Origin: an uncultured Candidatus Saccharibacteria bacterium
GTDB lineage: Bacteria > Patescibacteriota > Minisyncoccia > UBA6257 > Colwellbacteraceae
Reading direction: 5' to 3'
NCBI GenBank assembly: GCA_964348915.1
Contig: CAYGEM010000002.1
Coordinates: 13,617 to 64,300 of the forward strand
DNA: 50,684 nt
The notes beneath the pieces are model-generated. The model did no database searches, had not been told where the DNA came from, and saw nothing but the letters and a program-made list of their open reading frames with translations. Shown in pieces: positions 4,286-47,713 of this stretch (within the stretch, counting starts at the first letter, position 1; each line of letters begins with the position of its first letter). Made by a program: the position numbers and the translations under genes.

Positions 4286-5827
4286 TCACGCTAGATACTC
4301 GGTTCTCAATCGATACTGAAAGGCCTCGGCGACGTGGTCCAATCCGACTTGTCCGGATTCTTCCAGGTCGGCGATGGTGCGGCTCACTTTAAGCAGGCGG
4401 AAATAACCGCGGGCGGACAAAAGGGAACGGTCGAACGCTTTTTTGATGAATTCATCCGCTTCTTTGGTCAGACCGACGATTTTTTCGCACATTTTGGAGC
4501 TCATTTCATTGTTGGAAAAAGCGTTTTCTCCCCGGTCAAGAAATCTTTTTCTTTGCAATTCGCGCGCTTTTCGGACAGTGTCTTTTATCTCCGAGGAATT
4601 CTTTTCCGGAGAAGAGCGAAGATGTTCCATTTTCAGGCGGGGGACGGAAATTTGGATGTCGATGCGGTCGAGCAAGGGGCCGGAGATTTTTTTCTGGTAG
4701 CGGAAAATTTCATAAGCGCTGCAACGACATTCTTTTTCCGGGTCGTTGTAATAACCGCAGGGGCAGGGGTTCATGGCGGCGACAAATTGGAAACGGGCCG
4801 GAAAAACAAGGCTGTCTTTGATGCGGGAAACGGTGATGTAGCCGGCCTCGAGGGGCTGTCTTAAGGCCTCGAGAATGTCTCTCCTGAATTCAGGAAGTTC
4901 GTCCAAGAAAAGTACTCCGCGATGGGCCAAACTTATTTCTCCCGGCCGGGGATTCGCGCCGCCGCCGACGATCGCGGCGACTGAAGCGGAATGGTGCGGC
5001 TGGCGGAACGGCCGGAAATTTACGCGGGGAATTTCTTCGGAGAGAAGCCCGGCGGCGCTCCAGATTTTGGATATTTCGATAATTTCTTCAATGACCAGAG
5101 GGGGTAGAATCGACGGTAAGGATTTGGCCAGCATGGTTTTTCCCGAGCCCGGCGGCCCGACCATAAGCAAGTTATGTCCGCCGGCCGCGGCGATGATGAG
5201 GGCGCGTTTCGCCGCCTCCTGACCCCGGATATCGGCTATATCGATTTCCGGGAACGACTCTTCCCTTGGCTGATTCGGCGGGACAGCAGGGAGGACGTTT
5301 TTTTCTTCAAGATGGTCGATGACCTGGAGCAGGTTTTCCGCCGGACAGACGTTAATACCCGCGATAAGAGAGGCCTCGGCGGCGTTGGTTTTAGGTAAAA
5401 TCAATTCCCGAAATCCTTTTTTGACGCCGAGAGAGGCGACGCTCAAAGCGCCTCGCACCGGCCGGAGGCCGCCGTCCAGAGAAAGTTCGCCGAGGAAAAG
5501 CCGCTGGTCGGCGGCGAAATTTTTTATCTGGCCGGACGAAAGCAAATAACCGACGGCGATGGCCAAATCATATTGCGAGCCGGTCTTTTGTAAGTTCGCC
5601 GGAGCCAAACTCACGGTGATTTTGCGATTTTCCCGGTTCGGCGGCTTAAAGCCGCTGTTCTTCAAGGCGGAATTGACCCTTTCTTTAGCTTCGGAAAGGG
5701 CCTTATCGGCCAATCCGACGATAGCGAAACTATGCAGGCCGACATTGGTGTCAACCTCGATTTCGATTAATTGGGCATCGACTCCTTCTAACTCCGAGGA
5801 AAAAACGCGAGCCAGCATCCCCGGCAT
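4286..5827 (-). CDS. YifB/ComM-family Mg-chelatase-like AAA+ protein
   Basis: 513 aa. Lon-protease-like N-terminal domain, Walker A GPPGSGKT, Walker B LFLDELPEF, and a C-terminal ChlI-like region. Confidence 0.9.
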   Translation of the reverse strand: MPGMLARVFSSELEGVDAQLIEIEVDTNVGLHSFAIVGLADKALSEAKERVNSALKNSGFKPPNRENRKITVSLAPANLQKTGSQYDLAIAVGYLLSSGQIKNFAADQRLFLGELSLDGGLRPVRGALSVASLGVKKGFRELILPKTNAAEASLIAGINVCPAENLLQVIDHLEEKNVLPAVPPNQPREESFPEIDIADIRGQEAAKRALIIAAAGGHNLLMVGPPGSGKTMLAKSLPSILPPLVIEEIIEISKIWSAAGLLSEEIPRVNFRPFRQPHHSASVAAIVGGGANPRPGEISLAHRGVLFLDELPEFRRDILEALRQPLEAGYITVSRIKDSLVFPARFQFVAAMNPCPCGYYNDPEKECRCSAYEIFRYQKKISGPLLDRIDIQISVPRLKMEHLRSSPEKNSSEIKDTVRKARELQRKRFLDRGENAFSNNEMSSKMCEKIVGLTKEADEFIKKAFDRSLLSARGYFRLLKVSRTIADLEESGQVGLDHVAEAFQYRLRTEYLA

Positions 5828-13930: not shown

Positions 13931-14512
13931 ATGACGGAAGATTTACTCAAGTATAAAATTTGCGTTTCCGGCGCTGCGGAAACTTCGCATTGCGGAGAGA
14001 GCGCCTACCGCATCGCTGAAGAATTAGGCAGGGAAATCGCGCGCCACGATGTCGTTCTTGTTGATGGCGCGACCACCGGATTTCCCTACTGGACTTCCAA
14101 GGGCGCCAAACTGGAGGGGGGGTTGGTCATCGGCGTTTCTCCGGCGGCGACGAAAAGAGAGCATATCCGCGATTATAAATTGCCGATCGATTACCACGAC
14201 GTGATTATGTATACCGGGCACGGCTATTCCGGCCGAAACCTGCTTTTGACCCGGATGAGCGACGCGGTCATCGTCGGTTGCGGACGGATGGGTACGTTGA
14301 ATGAATTTACCATCGCTTTCGAGGACAAAAAGCCCATCGGCATATTGCAGGGAGAATGGGAGACCGACGAGCTTTTCGATTTTGTCATTAAAGGCACTCT
14401 CCGCTTTGAAGAGATGAGAGACAAAATCGTCCGCAATACCGACCCCAAGAAATTGCTTGAAGAAGTGATAGCGGTCATCCAGAGAGAAGAAAGAAGAAAT
14501 CATATTATTTAA
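13931..14512 (+). CDS. LOG/SLOG-superfamily Rossmann protein (TIGR00725-like)
   Basis: 193 aa. ICVSGAA start, VDGATTGFPYWTSKGA...GGLVIGVSP, and GCGRMGTLNEF, as in TIGR00725/LOG-like proteins. Confidence 0.6.
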   Translation: MTEDLLKYKICVSGAAETSHCGESAYRIAEELGREIARHDVVLVDGATTGFPYWTSKGAKLEGGLVIGVSPAATKREHIRDYKLPIDYHDVIMYTGHGYSGRNLLLTRMSDAVIVGCGRMGTLNEFTIAFEDKKPIGILQGEWETDELFDFVIKGTLRFEEMRDKIVRNTDPKKLLEEVIAVIQREERRNHII

Positions 14513-27566: not shown

Positions 27567-27610
27567 GCTGACTGATGACTAACGACTAACAACTTACGAC
27601 CAATAACGAC
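27567..27610. repeat. Heptanucleotide tandem array (about 6 units, consensus ACGACTN) between smpB and the tmRNA 5' end
   Basis: gctgact gatgact aacgact aacaact tacgacc aataacg. Related arrays occur at 29780-29820 and 33110-33130. Confidence 0.8.
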
Positions 27611-27623
27611 TTCGCGAATGAAC

Positions 27624-27661
27624 AAATTCGTACATTCGTATTGATTCGTAAATTCGTATGG
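27624..27661. repeat. Four ATTCGTA direct repeats at 8/10/8-nt spacing
   Basis: ATTCGTA at 27626, 27634, 27644 and 27652. 27643-27661 is the exact reverse complement of 29826-29844 (a 19-mer). Confidence 0.8.
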
Positions 27662-28126: not shown

Positions 28127-29773
28127 ATGGTTGAGGAAATCGCTAATTTAATTCGGGAAGCGACCAAGGAGGAGGCAAAGATAACGATTCCGGAGGACCC
28201 GAAATTCGGCCATTATTCCACCAATCTCGCTTTTATCGTCGCCAAATATCGGGAGATGGATCCTGCGGCGGCGGCCAAGGAGTTGAAAGACAAAATTTAT
28301 AATTACGCGCCAAAAGGTTTTTTCGAGCGCATTGATATCGCTGGAGGATTCCTCAATTTTTTTCTCGGAGAAAAAACTTTGGAGAAAGAATTTGAAAAAA
28401 TATTGCGGGAAAAAGGGGAATACGGTGCTTCTTCTTCCGGCCGGGGGAAAACGATAGTCATCGATTATTCCGCGCCGAATATCGCCAAGCCGATGAACAT
28501 CGGGCATCTGCCTTCGACCATCATCGGCCAGGCCCTGGTTAATCTGTACAGATTTTCGGGTTACCGGGTTATTGGAGACAACCACCTGGGCGATTGGGGA
28601 ACGCAACTCGGCAGCCTTATCGCGGCCTACAAAAAATGGGGAGACAAGAAAGAATTCGCGGTTCGCCCGATTGACCATCTGGTCGGTCTTTATGTCCGAT
28701 TCCATCGGGAAGCGGAGGACGATGAGGAACTGGCCAAGGAAGCGCGCGAAGAGACAAGAAAACTTCAGGAGGGCGACAAAGAAAATCGGCGGTTATGGAA
28801 GCTGTTTGTAAAGGAGAGTTTGAAAGAATTCAATAAAATTTATCGGCGACTCGGCATAAAGTTTAATGTATCTTTGAGCGAGAGTTTTTATCAGCCGATG
28901 CTTAAGGGGATCGTTGATGAGGCGCTGGCGAGAGGAGTGGCCAGAAAAGATGACGGGGCAATTAAAATATCCTCCGATAGTTTGCCCGATTTCGTCATTC
29001 GGAAAACCAACGGTTCATTTCTGTATACCACTACCGATTTGGCCACAATAAAATACCGGGTGAAACGCTGGAATCCGCGGAAAATTCTTTATGTGGTGTC
29101 TAATGAACAAACGCTTCATTTCAGCCAGTTATTCGTTGCCACGGAAAAATTGGGTTATGCGCCCCAGGTTGAATTGGCCCACATTAAATTCGGCATGGTG
29201 CTTGGCGAATCAGGCAAGAAAATGTCCACCCGGCGCGGGGAATTCATCAAGCTCGAGGAAGTGCTGGACAAGGCGACGGGAAAAGCCGGAGAGATCAATA
29301 AGGCGGCGGCCGAGGAAGTGGGGATAGGCGCGGTGAAATATAATATTTTATCCCATGATCGGATGAGCGACATTGTTTTTGACTGGGAGAAGATGCTCGA
29401 TTTACGCGGCAATTCCGGGCCGTATCTCCAGTATGCCTATGCCCGCTGCCGGAGCGTTTTAAGAAAAGCCGGAAGATTTAGCAAGAGAGTCGGGATTGAT
29501 TTGCTGACCGCGGAGAGCGAAAAAGAATTATTGCGCGAGATATTATATTTTCCGGACGCTGTTTCTTTTGCCGCGGAGAATTACAGTGTGAACCACTTGA
29601 CTGATTATCTCTATCGACTTGCCGGAGCGATGAATAATTTTTACGAAAAAGAGCCGGTTCTCAAAGCCGAAAAAAATTTGAAGCAGGCGCGGCTCGCCTT
29701 GCTTTTCAGCGCAAGCGAAATTTTGAAAAAAGGATTGGAACTTTTGGGAATAAAGGTGGCGGAGAGGATGTGA
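28127..29773 (+). CDS. argS: Arginine--tRNA ligase
   Basis: 548 aa. SAPNIAKPMNIGHLPSTIIG (HIGH-type region), a DALR anticodon-binding C-terminus, and C-terminal ...ERM. Confidence 0.9.
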   Translation: MVEEIANLIREATKEEAKITIPEDPKFGHYSTNLAFIVAKYREMDPAAAAKELKDKIYNYAPKGFFERIDIAGGFLNFFLGEKTLEKEFEKILREKGEYGASSSGRGKTIVIDYSAPNIAKPMNIGHLPSTIIGQALVNLYRFSGYRVIGDNHLGDWGTQLGSLIAAYKKWGDKKEFAVRPIDHLVGLYVRFHREAEDDEELAKEAREETRKLQEGDKENRRLWKLFVKESLKEFNKIYRRLGIKFNVSLSESFYQPMLKGIVDEALARGVARKDDGAIKISSDSLPDFVIRKTNGSFLYTTTDLATIKYRVKRWNPRKILYVVSNEQTLHFSQLFVATEKLGYAPQVELAHIKFGMVLGESGKKMSTRRGEFIKLEEVLDKATGKAGEINKAAAEEVGIGAVKYNILSHDRMSDIVFDWEKMLDLRGNSGPYLQYAYARCRSVLRKAGRFSKRVGIDLLTAESEKELLREILYFPDAVSFAAENYSVNHLTDYLYRLAGAMNNFYEKEPVLKAEKNLKQARLALLFSASEILKKGLELLGIKVAERM

Positions 29774-29779
29774 GTTAAG

Positions 29780-29820
29780 CCGACTAACAACTAACGACTT
29801 ACGACTAACGACTCACGACA
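29780..29820. repeat. Heptanucleotide tandem array ACGACTN, about 6 units
   Basis: ccgacta acaacta acgactt acgacta acgactc acgaca, immediately after the argS stop. Confidence 0.85.
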
Positions 29821-29825
29821 GGCCT

Positions 29826-29892
29826 CCATACGAATTTACGAATCGGCACTTGTCCCGATAGTATAGAGGGACGAATATACGAATTTGTGCCG
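29826..29892. repeat. TACGAAT repeat cluster (4 copies in two pairs)
   Basis: TACGAAT at 29829 and 29837, ACGAAT at 29871, TACGAAT at 29878. GGCAC (29845-29849) and GTGCC (29888-29892) are inverted. Confidence 0.8.
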
Positions 29893-29898
29893 TTCTTT

Positions 29899-29935
29899 TT
29901 GACAAAGCGCTTTCATTATGTTTCTCTTTAAGCAG
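29899..29935 (+). promoter_or_regulatory. TTGACA-N10-ATTATGTTTCTCTTTAAGCAG element upstream of pyrF
   Basis: Same architecture and an identical 21-mer at 31655-31691. UUUCUCU (29921-29927) is complementary to AGAGAGA (29966-29972) next to the SD GAGGGAGG. Confidence 0.6.
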
Positions 29936-29988
29936 TAACAGCAGTTGTACCTTATCAAAGCTTTCAGAGAGAGAGGGAGGTGAAATAA

Positions 29989-30867
29989 ATGGCAGGTTTT
30001 CGTCAGAAGTTGGCTCGGCGTCAGGAGAAGATCGGCTCTCTTCTGTGCGTGGGATTAGATCCTGTCTGGGAGAAGATTCCGCGTTCCGTGAAGAGGGCCT
30101 GTTCTTCACCGAAGGACGCGGTTCTTCTCTGGGCGATGGGGATTGTTGATGCAGTCGTATTCGACACCTGTCTCTTCAAGCCTCAGCATGCCCACTGGGA
30201 GGCGATTCCCGGCGGCATCGAGGTCTTGAGGACATTGGTCGCTTATATCCACTCCAACTACCCCACCATCCCAGTCTTCGTCGACTGCAAGAGGGGAGAC
30301 ATCGAGGACACCCAAGCCCAGTACGGGGTCGCTCATCTTAAAGGAGAGCGGTTCGACGGCATGAATATAAACGGTTACATGGGGCTTGCCACCGTCGAAC
30401 CCCTCGCCCGGCGGTATCCCGGCCGAGCCATCGTCGGGCTTGGCCGGACCAGCAATTCGTCCGCTTGGGAGATACAGGACACTCCTATGGCAGATGGGCG
30501 ACCGTTTTGGGAGTTCATGGTCAAATGTCAGCTTGCCTGGTTCCGGCAGCTTGGCATTACGGCCGATGCCGGCCTGGTTATGGGCGCCGCTTATCCCGAC
30601 CCCAAAGATCCCGGCCGAGTCTACGATGCCCATCTCCGGCGAGTCCGAGAACTCGTCGATGACGAACTGTGGCTCCTGATTCCTGGTATCGGGAAGCAAG
30701 GGGGTCTAGCTCGAGCCACGGCCGAGGCCAGTTTCCGGGGTTGGGGCAGTATCGCCATCAACTCGTCCAGGGCGATCATCTTCGCCAGCGGAAAGGCGGA
30801 TTTTGCCGAAGCCGCTGTAGCGGTTGCGCGTACTACGAACGATGAGCTGATGGCCGGAATCAAGTAG
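29989..30867 (+). CDS. pyrF: Orotidine 5'-phosphate decarboxylase, type 2
   Basis: 292 aa. LCVGLDP, FKPQHAHW, DCKRGDIEDT and IPGIGKQGG are the long-form OMPdecase motifs. GC-rich relative to the backbone. Confidence 0.85.
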   Translation: MAGFRQKLARRQEKIGSLLCVGLDPVWEKIPRSVKRACSSPKDAVLLWAMGIVDAVVFDTCLFKPQHAHWEAIPGGIEVLRTLVAYIHSNYPTIPVFVDCKRGDIEDTQAQYGVAHLKGERFDGMNINGYMGLATVEPLARRYPGRAIVGLGRTSNSSAWEIQDTPMADGRPFWEFMVKCQLAWFRQLGITADAGLVMGAAYPDPKDPGRVYDAHLRRVRELVDDELWLLIPGIGKQGGLARATAEASFRGWGSIAINSSRAIIFASGKADFAEAAVAVARTTNDELMAGIK

Positions 30868-30903
30868 CCCGTATGTCACCCGAAGCCGGAAGGAGGTGAG
30901 ATC

Positions 30904-31560
30904 GTGCCTATTTTTTCCGAAGACGTCACTCGGATTCTCGAGCAGAGGGATGCTCTGTGGATCCATTCGGGAAATCCGAAGGACCCGCATGCAGAGCTGA
31001 CTTCAGGCAAGTGCAGTGACGGTTTCGTCGACGTCCTTCGAGCCCTCCGCTACACCGATGATTGCATGCTTCTTGCCGAGGGCCTCGTTACCCTGCTCCG
31101 GAAGAACTACAGCGGTCCGGTGGATTGGGTAGTTGGTTCGGATCACGCCGGCGCCGCCCTTTCGCACTCGGTGGCCATTCTATTCCATGCGAAACACGAC
31201 TTCACCGAAAAGAAAGAAGAACTGGGCGATGGAGAGATGGTCAAGGAGCAGTTGTGGCGTCGCTTCGAGATCAAGCCCGGAGATATGGTGCTTCAAGTCG
31301 AGGATTTGATCACGACCACGGGGACGCTTCTTCGCGTCCGGCAAGGGATCAGGGCGGGGAACCATTCTTCAGTCCGGTTTGTCCCATTCTCTCTCGTCCT
31401 GGTTCATCGGTCCGATGTCTACGAGATCGAGGGAGAGCCGATCCTCTATCTTGCCCATTACGACATCCGGACCTGGGAGCCGGCCGATTGCCCTCTCTGC
31501 AGAGCCGGGTCGAAACGGCTTCGCCCGAAGAAAAGCTGGGCGGAGCTGGTTGGCCGATAG
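30904..31560 (+). CDS. pyrE: Type I phosphoribosyltransferase, probably orotate phosphoribosyltransferase
   Basis: 218 aa. GTG start 8 nt after GGAAGGAGGTGAG. PRPP-binding loop VLQVEDLITTTGTL. The OPRT call rests mainly on adjacency to pyrF. Confidence 0.6.
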   Translation: MPIFSEDVTRILEQRDALWIHSGNPKDPHAELTSGKCSDGFVDVLRALRYTDDCMLLAEGLVTLLRKNYSGPVDWVVGSDHAGAALSHSVAILFHAKHDFTEKKEELGDGEMVKEQLWRRFEIKPGDMVLQVEDLITTTGTLLRVRQGIRAGNHSSVRFVPFSLVLVHRSDVYEIEGEPILYLAHYDIRTWEPADCPLCRAGSKRLRPKKSWAELVGR

Positions 31561-31596
31561 CTCTTCGTGGGACAGGAGATAAACCCCTAAACTCCT

Positions 31597-31643
31597 AGCG
31601 GCCATGCGGATAACAAATCGCATGGCCGCTGTTCATTTCTATT
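31597..31643 (+). terminator. Intrinsic terminator after pyrE
   Basis: 12-bp perfect stem AGCGGCCATGCG (31597-31608) / CGCATGGCCGCT (31619-31630) with a 10-nt loop, followed by GTTCATTTCTATT. Confidence 0.7.
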
Positions 31644-31654
31644 CGAAAAGATGT

Positions 31655-31691
31655 TTGACACGCCATTATTATTATGTTTCTCTTTAAGCAG
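31655..31691 (+). promoter_or_regulatory. Second copy of TTGACA-N10-ATTATGTTTCTCTTTAAGCAG, upstream of the orphan ORF
   Basis: Identical 21-mer at 31671-31691. AGCAG (31687-31691) pairs with CTGCT (31701-31705). UUUCUCU (31677-31683) can pair with AGAGAGG (31713-31719), overlapping the SD. Confidence 0.6.
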
Positions 31692-31731
31692 GTCTTAATA
31701 CTGCTGATACTTAGAGAGGGAGGCGAGATCG

Positions 31732-32049
31732 ATGGATAAGGAAGAAAAGATCCTCCTTTCGCGTTGTCGAAAGAAGACAAAGGTGGAGGTCGAGGGGGCG
31801 TGGGAAGTCTACTATCCCAGCATCGGGCCCCTCTTCCGGAATGAAAGGGCCGTAGGGGGCGTACCCGAGAGCATATGCATACCTCGGGTCCTCGGCACCA
31901 AAGACGAGGTTGTGCAACTCGTGAGGCTCCTCGAGCTTCCTCTGATGGGGCCCTACGGGGTTTTCCTTCGACCCCTCAAAGTGCAGGTGAGAGGGGTAGT
32001 CGCCAGAGAGGCCATAAAGGCCATCGGCGACAAGGACAAGAAGGAGTAG
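31732..32049 (+). CDS. Hypothetical small protein (105 aa) sharing the pyrF-type leader
   Basis: ORF with SD GAGGGAGG upstream and a strong terminator downstream. GC-rich like pyrF/pyrE. No motif recognised. Confidence 0.6.
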   Translation: MDKEEKILLSRCRKKTKVEVEGAWEVYYPSIGPLFRNERAVGGVPESICIPRVLGTKDEVVQLVRLLELPLMGPYGVFLRPLKVQVRGVVAREAIKAIGDKDKKE

Positions 32050-32059
32050 GATACCACCG

Positions 32060-32090
32060 GCGGTCGTGCTTGCACGACCGCTTCGTTTTT
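32060..32090 (+). terminator. Intrinsic terminator (GC stem, CUUG loop, T-run)
   Basis: GCGGTCGTG (32060-32068) / CACGACCGC (32073-32081) around CTTG, followed by TTCGTTTTT. Confidence 0.85.
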
Positions 32091-32227
32091 AATCGAATTC
32101 TTAATTAAGAACCATTAGTTATTAACCGTGGATTATAGACAAATTTCTGCTATAGCAATGGAATGTCTATAGAATAAGAATAATTAGAATATTAATTAAT
32201 CACGGGATATCGGTTATTATTAATCCG

Positions 32228-33109: not shown

Positions 33110-33198
33110 ACGACTTACGACTAACGACCTATGGCTGACGAGGAATAACAAAATAGAAATAAGGAAGATTTTTTTTCATGTCGTTGGTCGTCAGTTGT
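33110..33198. repeat. Inverted pair of ACGACTN heptamer arrays flanking a 49-nt spacer
   Basis: 33110-33130 reads ACGACTT ACGACTA ACGACCT. 33180-33198 GTCGTTGGTCGTCAGTTGT is the reverse complement of ACAACTG ACGACCA ACGAC. As RNA, 18 of 19 positions can pair if G:U is allowed. Confidence 0.75.
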
Positions 33199-46649: not shown

Positions 46650-47126
46650 TTATTGGCTGGCTTGGTCTAATAATTTATCGATATTTTCGCCGTGAAGATA
46701 ACCGTTGAGGTCGTTAAAGGATTCCATTTCCCCTTCCAGGACGGCGGCATTTAAATGGCGGAGGCCGTTGCTTGCCGCTTCGTCAAGGGCCAAGGAGGCG
46801 ACTTGGGCGTTCTCGTTAAAATAATTGATTTCCTTGAGGGTGATATCGATTTTTTCGACGGCCGACTCGGTTTCTCTGTTTAGGTCGTAAATATTGGCGA
46901 CGGTTGGAGCTTGTCCGGCGAGATTGACCGAAAATAAAGCGAACGTCAAAGCGGCCATGACCGCCGAACAACTAAGAACCAAACGGGGTAAGGGCAACCA
47001 AAAGGAGAAAACGGTTTTCCTTGGAGCTTGGACGGAAGAGAGGATAATCCTTTTGGATTCCAGAACAAAAGCCGAACGCGGCTTGATGTTTTTCAGTTTT
47101 TGGATTTTGCTTATGATTTCTTCCAT
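46650..47126 (-). CDS. Single-pass membrane protein, putative anti-sigma factor
   Basis: 158 aa. Overlaps the sigma gene stop by 16 nt, with a central TM span (LVLSCSAVMAALTFALFSV). The assignment is by position only. Confidence 0.4.
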   Translation of the reverse strand: MEEIISKIQKLKNIKPRSAFVLESKRIILSSVQAPRKTVFSFWLPLPRLVLSCSAVMAALTFALFSVNLAGQAPTVANIYDLNRETESAVEKIDITLKEINYFNENAQVASLALDEAASNGLRHLNAAVLEGEMESFNDLNGYLHGENIDKLLDQASQ

Positions 47127-47653
47127 TGTCGCAATAGCTCTTTTAATTTATTGACGGCGCGGTGCTGCGTAACTTTTATCGCTCCTTCGGATTTTCCGGT
47201 TATTTTGGCGGTTTCGGCCACGGACAGTTCTTCCATGAACCGCAGGATAATCACTTCCTGTTCCGCGGGTTTCAGCTCCCCGATTGCTTCGATGGTCTGT
47301 TCGAGCTCGAGAGAAGCATCCATCTTTTCTTCCACCCGGCTGTTTTCCGGAATTTCAAAAGGGAAATCGAGGCTTACCAATGTTTTTGAACGTCGGTAAT
47401 AATCGATGATGGCGTTTCTCGCGATACGGTAGAGCCAGCTCCCGAAGGGCAAGCCCTTGTCGCTGTAATTTTTTAGGTTCTGCCAGGCCTTCAGAAAGGT
47501 TTGGTGGGAGAGGTCTTCGGCTTCCTCACGTCGGCCGACTCGGACCAGGATGAAACGATATATTTTAGGAAAATAATGGTCGTAAAGAAGGCCAAAAGCG
47601 TCGGCCTCTCCCTCCTTCGATAATTCTATGAGTTTGCGTTCATCCTCTAACAT
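47111..47653 (-). CDS. ECF-type RNA polymerase sigma-70 family factor
   Basis: About 180 aa from the ATG at 47653 (MLEDERKLIELSKEG...). Region 2 FGLLYDHYFPKIYRFILVRV...AEDLSHQTFLKAW, and region 4 HTH LSVAETAKITGKSEGAIKVTQHRAVNKLK. Confidence 0.85.
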   Translation of the reverse strand: MLEDERKLIELSKEGEADAFGLLYDHYFPKIYRFILVRVGRREEAEDLSHQTFLKAWQNLKNYSDKGLPFGSWLYRIARNAIIDYYRRSKTLVSLDFPFEIPENSRVEEKMDASLELEQTIEAIGELKPAEQEVIILRFMEELSVAETAKITGKSEGAIKVTQHRAVNKLKELLRQWKKS

Positions 47654-47713
47654 AGAAACGTTTTTATGTGCCAAAAGTTACATTTACGGCTTGGATAGCC
47701 GATAAAATCGCTA

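Follow-up and report, generated by a model that had tools for sequence, protein, structure and literature searches.

Two neighbouring transcription units in the genome of a member of the Patescibacteria (ultra-small bacteria), one with pyrF and a pyrE-like gene and the other with an orphan ORF (ORF105), are headed by the same arrangement, TTGACA-N10-ATTATGTTTCTCTTTAAGCAG, and the question is what this 37-base block does there: whether it is promoter DNA, a control element acting in the RNA, or the footprint of an insertion. The window searched, that is, the whole stretch of DNA analysed, spans 50.7 kb, and the features of the locus are collected in Table 1.

The block and its setting

The block is real. 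A sequence-only reading of this DNA had described the two blocks as identical at 21 of 21 positions and at a fixed distance from TTGACA, and both the sequence and a mismatch search bear this out: with up to three mismatches allowed, the 21-mer has two sites only in the 50.7 kb and none in 100 shuffles, the chance expectation for the 21/21 identity being none. The ten bases that separate TTGACA from the 21-mer are dissimilar, and over the whole block the copies match at 29 of 37 positions. When four copies were combined into a sequence-only model, it detected no diverged copy at E ≤ 10 in the window, and comparison of the source metagenomes' contigs with copy 2 returned the two known copies only; with just two copies in its samples, a promoter class is not demonstrable from this genome.

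Table 1. Coordinates of the block copies, leaders, genes and terminators in the window
Feature	Position	Strand	Details
Block copy 1 (pyrF unit)	29899-29935	+	TTGACA 29899-29904, 10-nt spacer segment, 21-mer (ATTATGTTTCTCTTTAAGCAG) 29915-29935
Palindrome AAAGCGCTTT in copy 1 spacer segment	29904-29913	+	
Copy 1 as promoter (predicted)		+	TG 29919-29920; -10-position hexamer TTCTCT 29922-29927
Copy 1, predicted +1	~29930-29935	+	
pyrF leader	29936-29988	+	SD tract AGAGAGGGAGG at 29970-29980, 8 nt 5' of ATG
pyrF, orotidine-5'-phosphate decarboxylase subfamily 2	29989-30867	+	Pfam PF00215; TIGR02127
pyrE-like phosphoribosyltransferase	30904-31560	+	GTG start, SD GGAAGGAGGTGA, GC 57.7%
Intrinsic terminator 3' of pyrE	31596-31631	+	14-bp stem, then T-rich tail
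Block copy 2 (ORF105 unit)	31655-31691	+	TTGACA 31655-31660, spacer CGCCATTATT, identical 21-mer 31671-31691
Copy 2, predicted +1	~31686-31691	+	
ORF105 leader	31692-31731	+	SD tract AGAGAGGGAGG at 31713-31723, 8 nt 5' of ATG
ORF105, orphan 105-aa ORF	31732-32049	+	GC 57.2%, GC3 71.7%
Intrinsic terminator 3' of ORF105	32059-32082	+	10-bp stem

As for the genes, the pyrF product scores 154 bits against TIGR02127 (cutoff 110.6), and the GC content of the gene is 58.8% (GC3 66.9%). The phosphoribosyltransferase that follows scores as pyrE-like and not as PyrR; it reaches 63 bits with pyrE_Therm, below the cutoff, and it has many CPR homologues with 55-66% identity, some of them named orotate phosphoribosyltransferase by JGI. 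ORF105 had no homologue in two protein searches and no match in Pfam or NCBIfam, and its AF2 model, with a mean pLDDT of 43, is unusable. The idea that ORF105 is the regulator of the block was rejected, because the protein has no homologue anywhere, yet the block is found in other genomes.

The three genes are GC-rich and SD-led, and the backbone genes differ on both counts: GC is 57-59% inside the module (GC3 67-72%) versus 46-50% (GC3 49-57%) in the neighbouring genes, and among 43 gene starts outside the module and glmS an SD of at least 5 nt was found only at 13931. The leaders of pyrF and ORF105 align with each other at both ends and share an identical AGAGAGGGAGG-N8-ATG, a feature absent from the sequence-only reading.

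Every copy of the block occupies a place that calls for a promoter and lacks a canonical one. Copy 1 lies within the 215-nt gap between argS and pyrF, and copy 2 begins 24 nt after the end of the pyrE terminator; because this strong terminator directly precedes it, copy 2 needs a promoter of its own.

Promoter features

The -35 hexamer is TTGACA at 6 of 6 positions in all four sequenced copies, and its distance to the conserved segment is N10, N10, N11 and N10. The earlier remark that no canonical -10 lies 16-18 nt downstream, so that this is not a plain TTGACA/TATAAT promoter, proved correct: the hexamers there (TTTCTC, TTCTCT and TCTCTT) have no A at position 2, none is TAnnnT, and a consensus scan built no + strand promoter on either TTGACA of the block. 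A TG is placed exactly as in an extended -10 (TGn) with a 17-nt spacer, the -10 position reading TG-n-TTCTCT.

Regarding the rest of the genome, the backbone genes, most of them leaderless, have clear TATAAT boxes; the box is perfect (6/6) upstream of argS and several other genes, and a -10-like box lies 4-11 nt upstream in 21 of 43 gene starts versus 14% at random positions. Since canonical boxes are used elsewhere in the genome, the missing TAnnnT counts against a promoter. Other assignments were tried and discarded, as none fits all copies: TATGTT with a 12-nt spacer, CATTAT/TATTAT and TA[AG]nnn with a 24-nt spacer as alternative -10/-35 elements, and the Bacteroidetes-type TTTG/TAnnTTTG, sigma-54 and ECF GAAC/CGT types. 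An ECF sigma factor is encoded at 47111-47674.

Recurrence in other genomes

In a relative (L007), pyrF also follows argS with the block upstream, TTGACA being conserved at 6/6 and the 21-mer at 19/21; the contig ends inside pyrE. The PyrF proteins are 78% identical and the third-codon positions of pyrF only 60% identical to the window, yet the block is kept. Downstream of it, positions 29943-29971 of the pyrF leader (AGTTGTACCTTATCAAAGCTTTCAGAGAG) are identical in L007 (29/29), a conservation that leaves room for an additional RNA-level signal.

A second occurrence, in another CPR contig (L030, 341 kb), adjoins a divergent tRNA-Gln and precedes ORF172, an unrelated orphan gene rich in GC. pyrF, ORF105 and ORF172 are unrelated to one another (BLASTP E = 15 for the ORF172 comparison), and the L030 leader has nothing in common with the window leaders beyond the block. 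In the source metagenomes of L030 the block is present on at least three more contigs (31.4, 20.3 and 4.7 kb) of similar depth, where the flanks are unrelated on both sides of it; the matches start 0-3 nt upstream of TTGACA and run as far as ...TTTCTCT, ...TTTAA or ...TTTAAGTG, at the predicted +1. One paralogous copy in this community has an extra ATT, which would lengthen a -35/-10 spacer to 20 nt and counts against the promoter reading. Across genomes and loci, the recurring unit is TTGACA with the next ~30 nt, and not the leader or the purine tract.

A search with TTGACA-N9-12-TTATGTTTCTCTTT matched 14 loci in metagenome_contigs, of which L030 alone is related, and gave 7 chance matches in unrelated phyla in genome_contigs, a collection that excludes the window's own genome, and none in viral_contigs. 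The upstream regions of four more distant pyrF/pyrE loci (L008, L031, L032 and L035) have no similarity, and the block is therefore not a conserved CPR pyr leader. pyrF was found in none of the RNA runs, and four metatranscriptomes that contain a related tmRNA gave no transcripts of the locus.

A probable copied core promoter

The block behaves like promoter DNA, because it starts with a perfect -35 and its conservation ends ~30-35 nt further on, near the expected +1. With a probability of roughly 60%, it is a copied core promoter (-35 to about +1) that now heads the pyrF-pyrE and ORF105 units. The perfect TTGACA would be the contact site for RNA polymerase holoenzyme, and the invariant ATTATGTTTCTCT would fill the spacer and the -10 position, with TG at -15/-14 and TTCTCT after the 17-nt spacer; a start at the A/G of AAGCAG would give leaders of ~55 nt for pyrF and ~42 nt for ORF105, both ending in the strong SD. 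The -10 has no essential A2, yet the ~28 nt after the -35 are constant across genomes, from which we infer a composite promoter-plus-recognition site: the block probably requires an additional factor or a different sigma, so that either a dedicated activator or repressor would work with it or an alternative sigma factor would use it. The pyrF-pyrE and ORF105 units would be co-regulated at transcription, and the perfect identity of the two window copies in the 21-mer would derive from duplication or gene conversion.

A bolder version, possible if unlikely, would make the block one of a lineage-specific, non-sigma-70-type class of promoters in a clade of Patescibacteria, in which TTGACA plus the invariant ATTATGTTTCTCT is read by an alternative sigma factor or a dedicated activator; the block would be a portable expression module, grafted with a strong SD before GC-rich and probably acquired genes in genomes with leaderless native genes that start from TATAAT-N6-9-ATG, and slippage of the (ATT)n run in the spacer would tune or switch its strength.

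Alternative explanations

The sequence-only reading had placed the function of the block in the RNA: once transcribed, UUUCUCU would pair with the purine tract of the SD, or a PyrR-like protein would bind AGAGAGG, and translation of pyrF and ORF105 would be controlled jointly. The pairings it named (UUUCUCU 29921-29927 with AGAGAGA 29966-29972, and 31677-31683 with 31713-31719) do exist, as do the helper helices AAGC/GCUU and AGCAG/CUGCU, and all appear in minimum-energy folds that include the tract; L007 (UUUCUCUUU with AGAGAGGAA) and even L030, where AAAGAGGGG lies at the SD, retain the capacity to pair, L007 carries CAGAGAGG, the core of PyrR sites, and read-through from argS could put the tract in RNA, because the scan gave no terminator after that gene. 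However, a purine-rich SD pairs with any pyrimidine run, and the leaders fold no more stably than dinucleotide shuffles, with z = 0.19 and -1.70 when the tract is included and 0.38 and 0.42 when folding starts at the predicted +1. RNAalifold, given three leaders, leaves out the UUUCUCU:AGAGAGG helix, and the same leaders contain no compensatory changes in the named helices: AAGC/GCUU loses one pair in L007, the only orthologue found, where AAGC has become AGAC without a compensating change, and the one A-U to G-C change lies in a different, weak helix (UACCUU:GAGGUG), a 5-6 bp SD match of the kind that chance is expected to produce. The PyrR family RF00515 has no match at the gathering score or at E ≤ 10 in 29700-32100 or in the L007 leader, and no other relevant Rfam family was found at these thresholds. 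Moreover, with TTGACA taken as the -35, UUUCUCU occupies roughly -13 to -7, 5' of the predicted +1, and is predicted to be untranscribed; copy 2 needs its own promoter directly 3' of a strong terminator, and the paralogous copies have the block with neither the leader nor the purine tract. What survives of this proposal is a shared cis element that is not due to chance, with co-regulation plausible; translational or PyrR control, which is unsupported, appears improbable.

Another explanation, rather unlikely, is that recombination at a short shared sequence brought in or rearranged the GC-rich pyrF-pyrE segment, the repeats being junction duplicates that are identical by descent or gene conversion and have no sequence-specific function beyond an ordinary -35. 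Direct repeats do flank a segment of 58% GC in a neighbourhood of 46-50%, and the three genes of the segment all have SDs, versus a leaderless backbone; in addition, the L007 promoter is a hybrid, with a -35 flank and spacer that match copy 2 (GATGTTTGACAC[A/G]CCATTATT) and a downstream leader that matches copy 1, the pattern that a crossover within the 21-mer would leave. Against this, the arrangement is old, because pyrF of L007, with 78% protein identity, is already behind argS with the block, neither an empty site nor a deletion joint was found in four metagenomes, and 34 nt recur at unrelated loci with sharp edges, which points to selection on the sequence itself. It is very unlikely that the block works from the other strand, where its complement has a good -10 (CATAAT, plus AATAAT repeats) that would drive divergent or antisense transcripts: the scan gives TTAAGA-N16-CATAAT at 31698-31671, and L030 has TTAAAA-N18-AATAAT with the tRNA-Gln downstream on that strand, but such a promoter would take its -35, which is not the same in copy 1 and L007, from beyond the conserved block, the invariant TTGACA is left unexplained, and within the window nothing but antisense RNA to argS and pyrE would result. 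Equally slight are the chances that a mini-ORF (ATG TTT CTC TTT AAG CAG TAA, MFLFKQ*) begins in the block and serves as a leader peptide or a ribosome-loading device. All copies keep its frame open (MFLFKQ*; L007, MFLFRQ*; L030, MFLFKCF*; copy 2, 21 aa), and the sole change in L007 is a conservative two-base one, AAG to AGA (Lys to Arg); yet the length and the C-terminus vary between copies, an SD is lacking, the ATG is 13 nt after TTGACA and hence upstream of the predicted +1, and, unlike the leaderless genes of this genome, it has no -10 box 6-9 nt upstream.

Comparison with known systems

The block resembles extended -10 (TGn) sigma-70 promoters in its perfect -35, the 17-nt spacer and the TG one base before the hexamer, but this hexamer, TTCTCT, is without the -11 A on which group-1 sigma factors depend, and membership fails there. 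With the PyrR site (RF00515) it shares an AGAGAGG-like purine tract before a pyrimidine-synthesis gene; unlike that site, it gives no covariance-model match, and the tract is part of the SD and also precedes an unrelated orphan gene; no pyrR gene was seen in the sequence analysed. In E. coli and Salmonella, start-site switching of the pyrC/pyrD type reportedly involves a 5' hairpin that sequesters the SD (reviewed by Turnbough and Switzer). Here too, the promoter of a pyrimidine gene has a C/T-rich stretch near +1 that could pair with the SD if transcribed; however, the block also serves non-pyrimidine genes (ORF105 and ORF172 of L030), and nothing at the window locus points to alternative start sites.

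Promoter reuse before non-homologous genes has been documented as putative mobile promoters, defined by at least 80% identity over at least 50 nt (Matus-Garcia, Nijveen & van Passel 2012; PMC3575422). The block is like these in that near-identical upstream regions precede non-homologous genes, both inside a single genome and between related ones, and no mobile element can be recognised alongside. It differs in its length of 34-38 nt, short of the formal 50 nt, in having no canonical -10, and in that the two window copies are neighbours on either side of a GC-atypical segment.

Significance

Most likely, the block is a real but fairly ordinary case of promoter reuse rather than an RNA switch, and a tempting misreading can be corrected: the purine tract by a pyrimidine-synthesis gene is a Shine-Dalgarno sequence and not a PyrR site. 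If this plain reading alone is true, the locus adds one more case of promoter duplication and reuse. To our knowledge, promoters of Patescibacteria have not been characterised by experiment, and a constant, promoter-sized block without the usual -10 of the genome offers a testable handle on how acquired genes are expressed in these bacteria.

The block and its setting

Two copies of a block, consisting of a TTGACA hexamer, a spacer of about 10 nt and a 21-mer, precede pyrF (copy 1) and ORF105, an orphan 105-aa ORF (copy 2); judged by sequence, this block would most likely be a reused, non-canonical core promoter, to which we assign a probability of about 0.6. The arrangement reported in the sequence-only reading, TTGACA followed by 10 variable nt and an identical 21-mer, is present at both sites. 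The 10-nt segments 3' of TTGACA differ, being AAGCGCTTTC in copy 1 and CGCCATTATT in copy 2; a search of the whole window allowing up to 3 mismatches returned no 21-mer site besides these two, and the 21-mer appeared in 0 of 100 shuffles. Regarding the leaders of pyrF and ORF105, MAFFT aligned them over their full length, with a diverged middle, and AGAGAGGGAGG is common to their 3' ends, 8 nt before ATG. For the identity between this genome's two copies, duplication or gene conversion is the best explanation. The copy 1 spacer contains a perfect 10-nt palindrome, AAAGCGCTTT (29904-29913), in place of the (ATT)n run of the other copies; this palindrome may have arisen by chance, or it may be an operator specific to pyrF.

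Coordinates of the block and of neighbouring features in the window
Feature	Position or length	Strand	Remarks
TTGACA hexamers	29899-29904 and 31655-31660	+	sequence
Identical 21-mer ATTATGTTTCTCTTTAAGCAG	29915-29935 and 31671-31691	+	sequence
argS	28127-29773		
argS-pyrF gap	215 nt		ACGACTN heptamers and ACGAAT repeats inside
pyrF	29989-30867		TIGR02127 above cutoff
pyrE-like PRTase	30904-31560		
Strong terminator after pyrE-like PRTase	31596-31631		block 2 starts 24 nt later
ORF105	31732-32049		
Terminator after ORF105	32059-32082		

The window is part of a Patescibacteria/CPR genome, and the homologues of its genes agree. The gene order is smpB, argS, the gap, block 1, pyrF, pyrE-like PRTase, terminator, block 2, ORF105, terminator, methyltransferase, pseudouridine synthase and ileS; pyrF, pyrE and ORF105 have a GC content of 57-59% (GC3 67-72%) versus 46-50% (GC3 49-57%) in the neighbouring genes. 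In the window, a -10-like box lies 4-11 nt upstream of 21 of the 43 gene starts, versus 14% of random positions, and several of these boxes are a perfect TATAAT, as before argS; from this pattern, the backbone genes look largely leaderless. Only five genes of the window have an SD of at least 5 nt, and four of them are GC-rich: pyrF, pyrE, ORF105, and glmS, which is another GC-rich island.

As for ORF105, neither a word search of 5.8 billion proteins nor an exhaustive HMMER search against 1.84 billion representatives returned a homologue. In sequencing run X3, a minor strain variant (31711-31799) lacks 1 nt at 31711 and carries two substitutions upstream of the ORF, A31717G within the SD tract and C31730T within the leader; this variant also has four changes inside ORF105 (one synonymous, the others E to K, K to R and A to V), and it does not clearly point to purifying selection on this ORF.

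The ACGACTN heptamer array and TACGAAT repeat cluster at 29782-29884, upstream of block 1, is multi-copy (also at 27567-27660 and 33110-33198); in each of the four source metagenomes, contig depth over it exceeds that of the genes on either side by a factor of ∼5, the sequences flanking it are many and varied, and several assemblies break within it, at 29807-29855.

Copies at other loci

The closest pyrF (78% identity) is on L007, a 1.1-kb JGI contig syntenic with the window upstream of this gene (argS end, heptamers and ACGAAT repeats), with the block TTGACA-N11-ATTATGTTTCTCTTTAGACAG. Between the two loci, pyrF third-codon positions are 60% identical, TTGACA 6/6 and the 21-mer 19/21. L007 is similar to window copy 2 in its -35 flank and spacer and to copy 1 in its leader, a hybrid pattern that suggests recombination or conversion inside the 21-mer in one lineage. 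At more distant CPR pyrF/pyrE loci, no trace of the block was found.

In JGI metagenomes, an exact-pattern scan gave a single related locus, L030, which lies on a contig of 341 kb; its block, TTGACAcattattattATTATGTTTCTCTTTAAGtgt, is preceded by heptamers of the same kind as in the window, and is followed by an orphan ORF of 172 aa (ORF172; 63% GC) unrelated to ORF105. A divergent tRNA-Gln adjoins the block and ORF172, and a stem-loop, seen by eye at ∼4924-4970 after the ORF, is absent from the list of the terminator scan. Beyond the block, the L030 leader has nothing in common with the window leaders. L007, as the orthologue, and L030, as the paralogous locus, are the two loci outside the window that were read in their entirety. 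Repeats of the types at 29782-29884 adjoin the block in both L007 and L030.

Alignment of the contigs of the two L030 source metagenomes to the block alone revealed at least three more contigs carrying it (31.4, 20.3 and 4.7 kb); their depths are similar and their flanks unrelated on both sides. The edges of these copies lie 0-3 nt before TTGACA at the 5' side, and at ...TTTCTCT, ...TTTAA or ...TTTAAGTG at the 3' side; in one copy, the spacer is longer by an ATT. In the four metagenomes of the window itself, neither copies beyond the two known nor a deletion joint between them were detected.

One contig of run X9 connects position 4357 of L030 to position 5453 on the opposite strand, and the joint lies inside the inverted ACGAAA repeat arrays around ORF172 and nifU; either an inversion, by which nifU would come to lie behind the block, or a repeat artefact may explain it (the short side is 34 nt).

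Promoter DNA or leader RNA

The conserved unit extends from a perfect -35 hexamer to the expected +1, and it occurs before unrelated genes, in their orientation, at sites where a promoter is required and a canonical one is missing; these traits argue for promoter DNA rather than leader RNA, and promoter reuse in front of non-homologous genes is documented (PMC3575422). The alternative, put forward in the sequence-only reading, is an anti-SD or PyrR-like translational control of both units. The helices named for it are present and are picked by the MFE fold; taking TTGACA as the -35, UUUCUCU falls at about -13 to -7, so it would not be transcribed. Stability did not exceed that of shuffles, either for folds including the pyrimidine run (z 0.19 and -1.70) or for those starting at the predicted +1 (z 0.38 and 0.42). 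By our estimate, chance is about enough for a 40-nt leader to match a purine-rich SD over 5-6 bp. RNAalifold did not select UUUCUCU:AGAGAGG on the three available leaders; the helix that it proposed, UACCUU:GAGGUG, is weak and contains a single A-U to G-C change. In L007, one pair of the helper helix AAGC/GCUU is lost, since AAGC becomes AGAC and the opposite strand is unchanged. As for the PyrR site, no Rfam match reached the gathering score or E ≤ 10 in the window, none was found in the L007 leader, and the other relevant Rfam families likewise gave nothing at either threshold in the window. The shared cis element is real, and a translational or PyrR mechanism for it is unsupported. Separately from the block, the pyrF leader at 29943-29971 is identical to L007 158-186 at 29/29 positions, with synonymous sites only ∼60% identical, and this stretch may be an additional, pyrF-specific RNA signal.

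Returning to the putative core promoter, the lack of a canonical -10 noted earlier holds: its position is occupied by TG-n-TTCTCT, which lacks the position-2 A, unlike the textbook TATAAT boxes in the rest of the genome. At dispersed loci, all of the ∼28 nt that follow the -35 are unchanged, and the edges of the conserved unit are sharp; this constancy, together with the -10 devoid of the position-2 A, suggests that the block would combine a promoter with a recognition site, and that it would depend on an additional factor or be read by an alternative sigma.

Other promoter-related features

A promoter-like site at 50298-50262 (- strand), before a Cu_amine_oxidN1-domain protein, has a TTGACA-N14-TGT-TTnnnT layout like the block, with TTTGGT in place of TTCTCT and likewise no A at -11; model R1, a sequence-only model built from four block copies, gave it no score. 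The window also encodes an ECF-type sigma (BldN/SigM-like; TIGR02937, 109 bits) at 47111-47674 on the - strand; the small gene that comes after it (pair 46650-47674, - strand) has a faint FtsL-like match and could be its anti-sigma.
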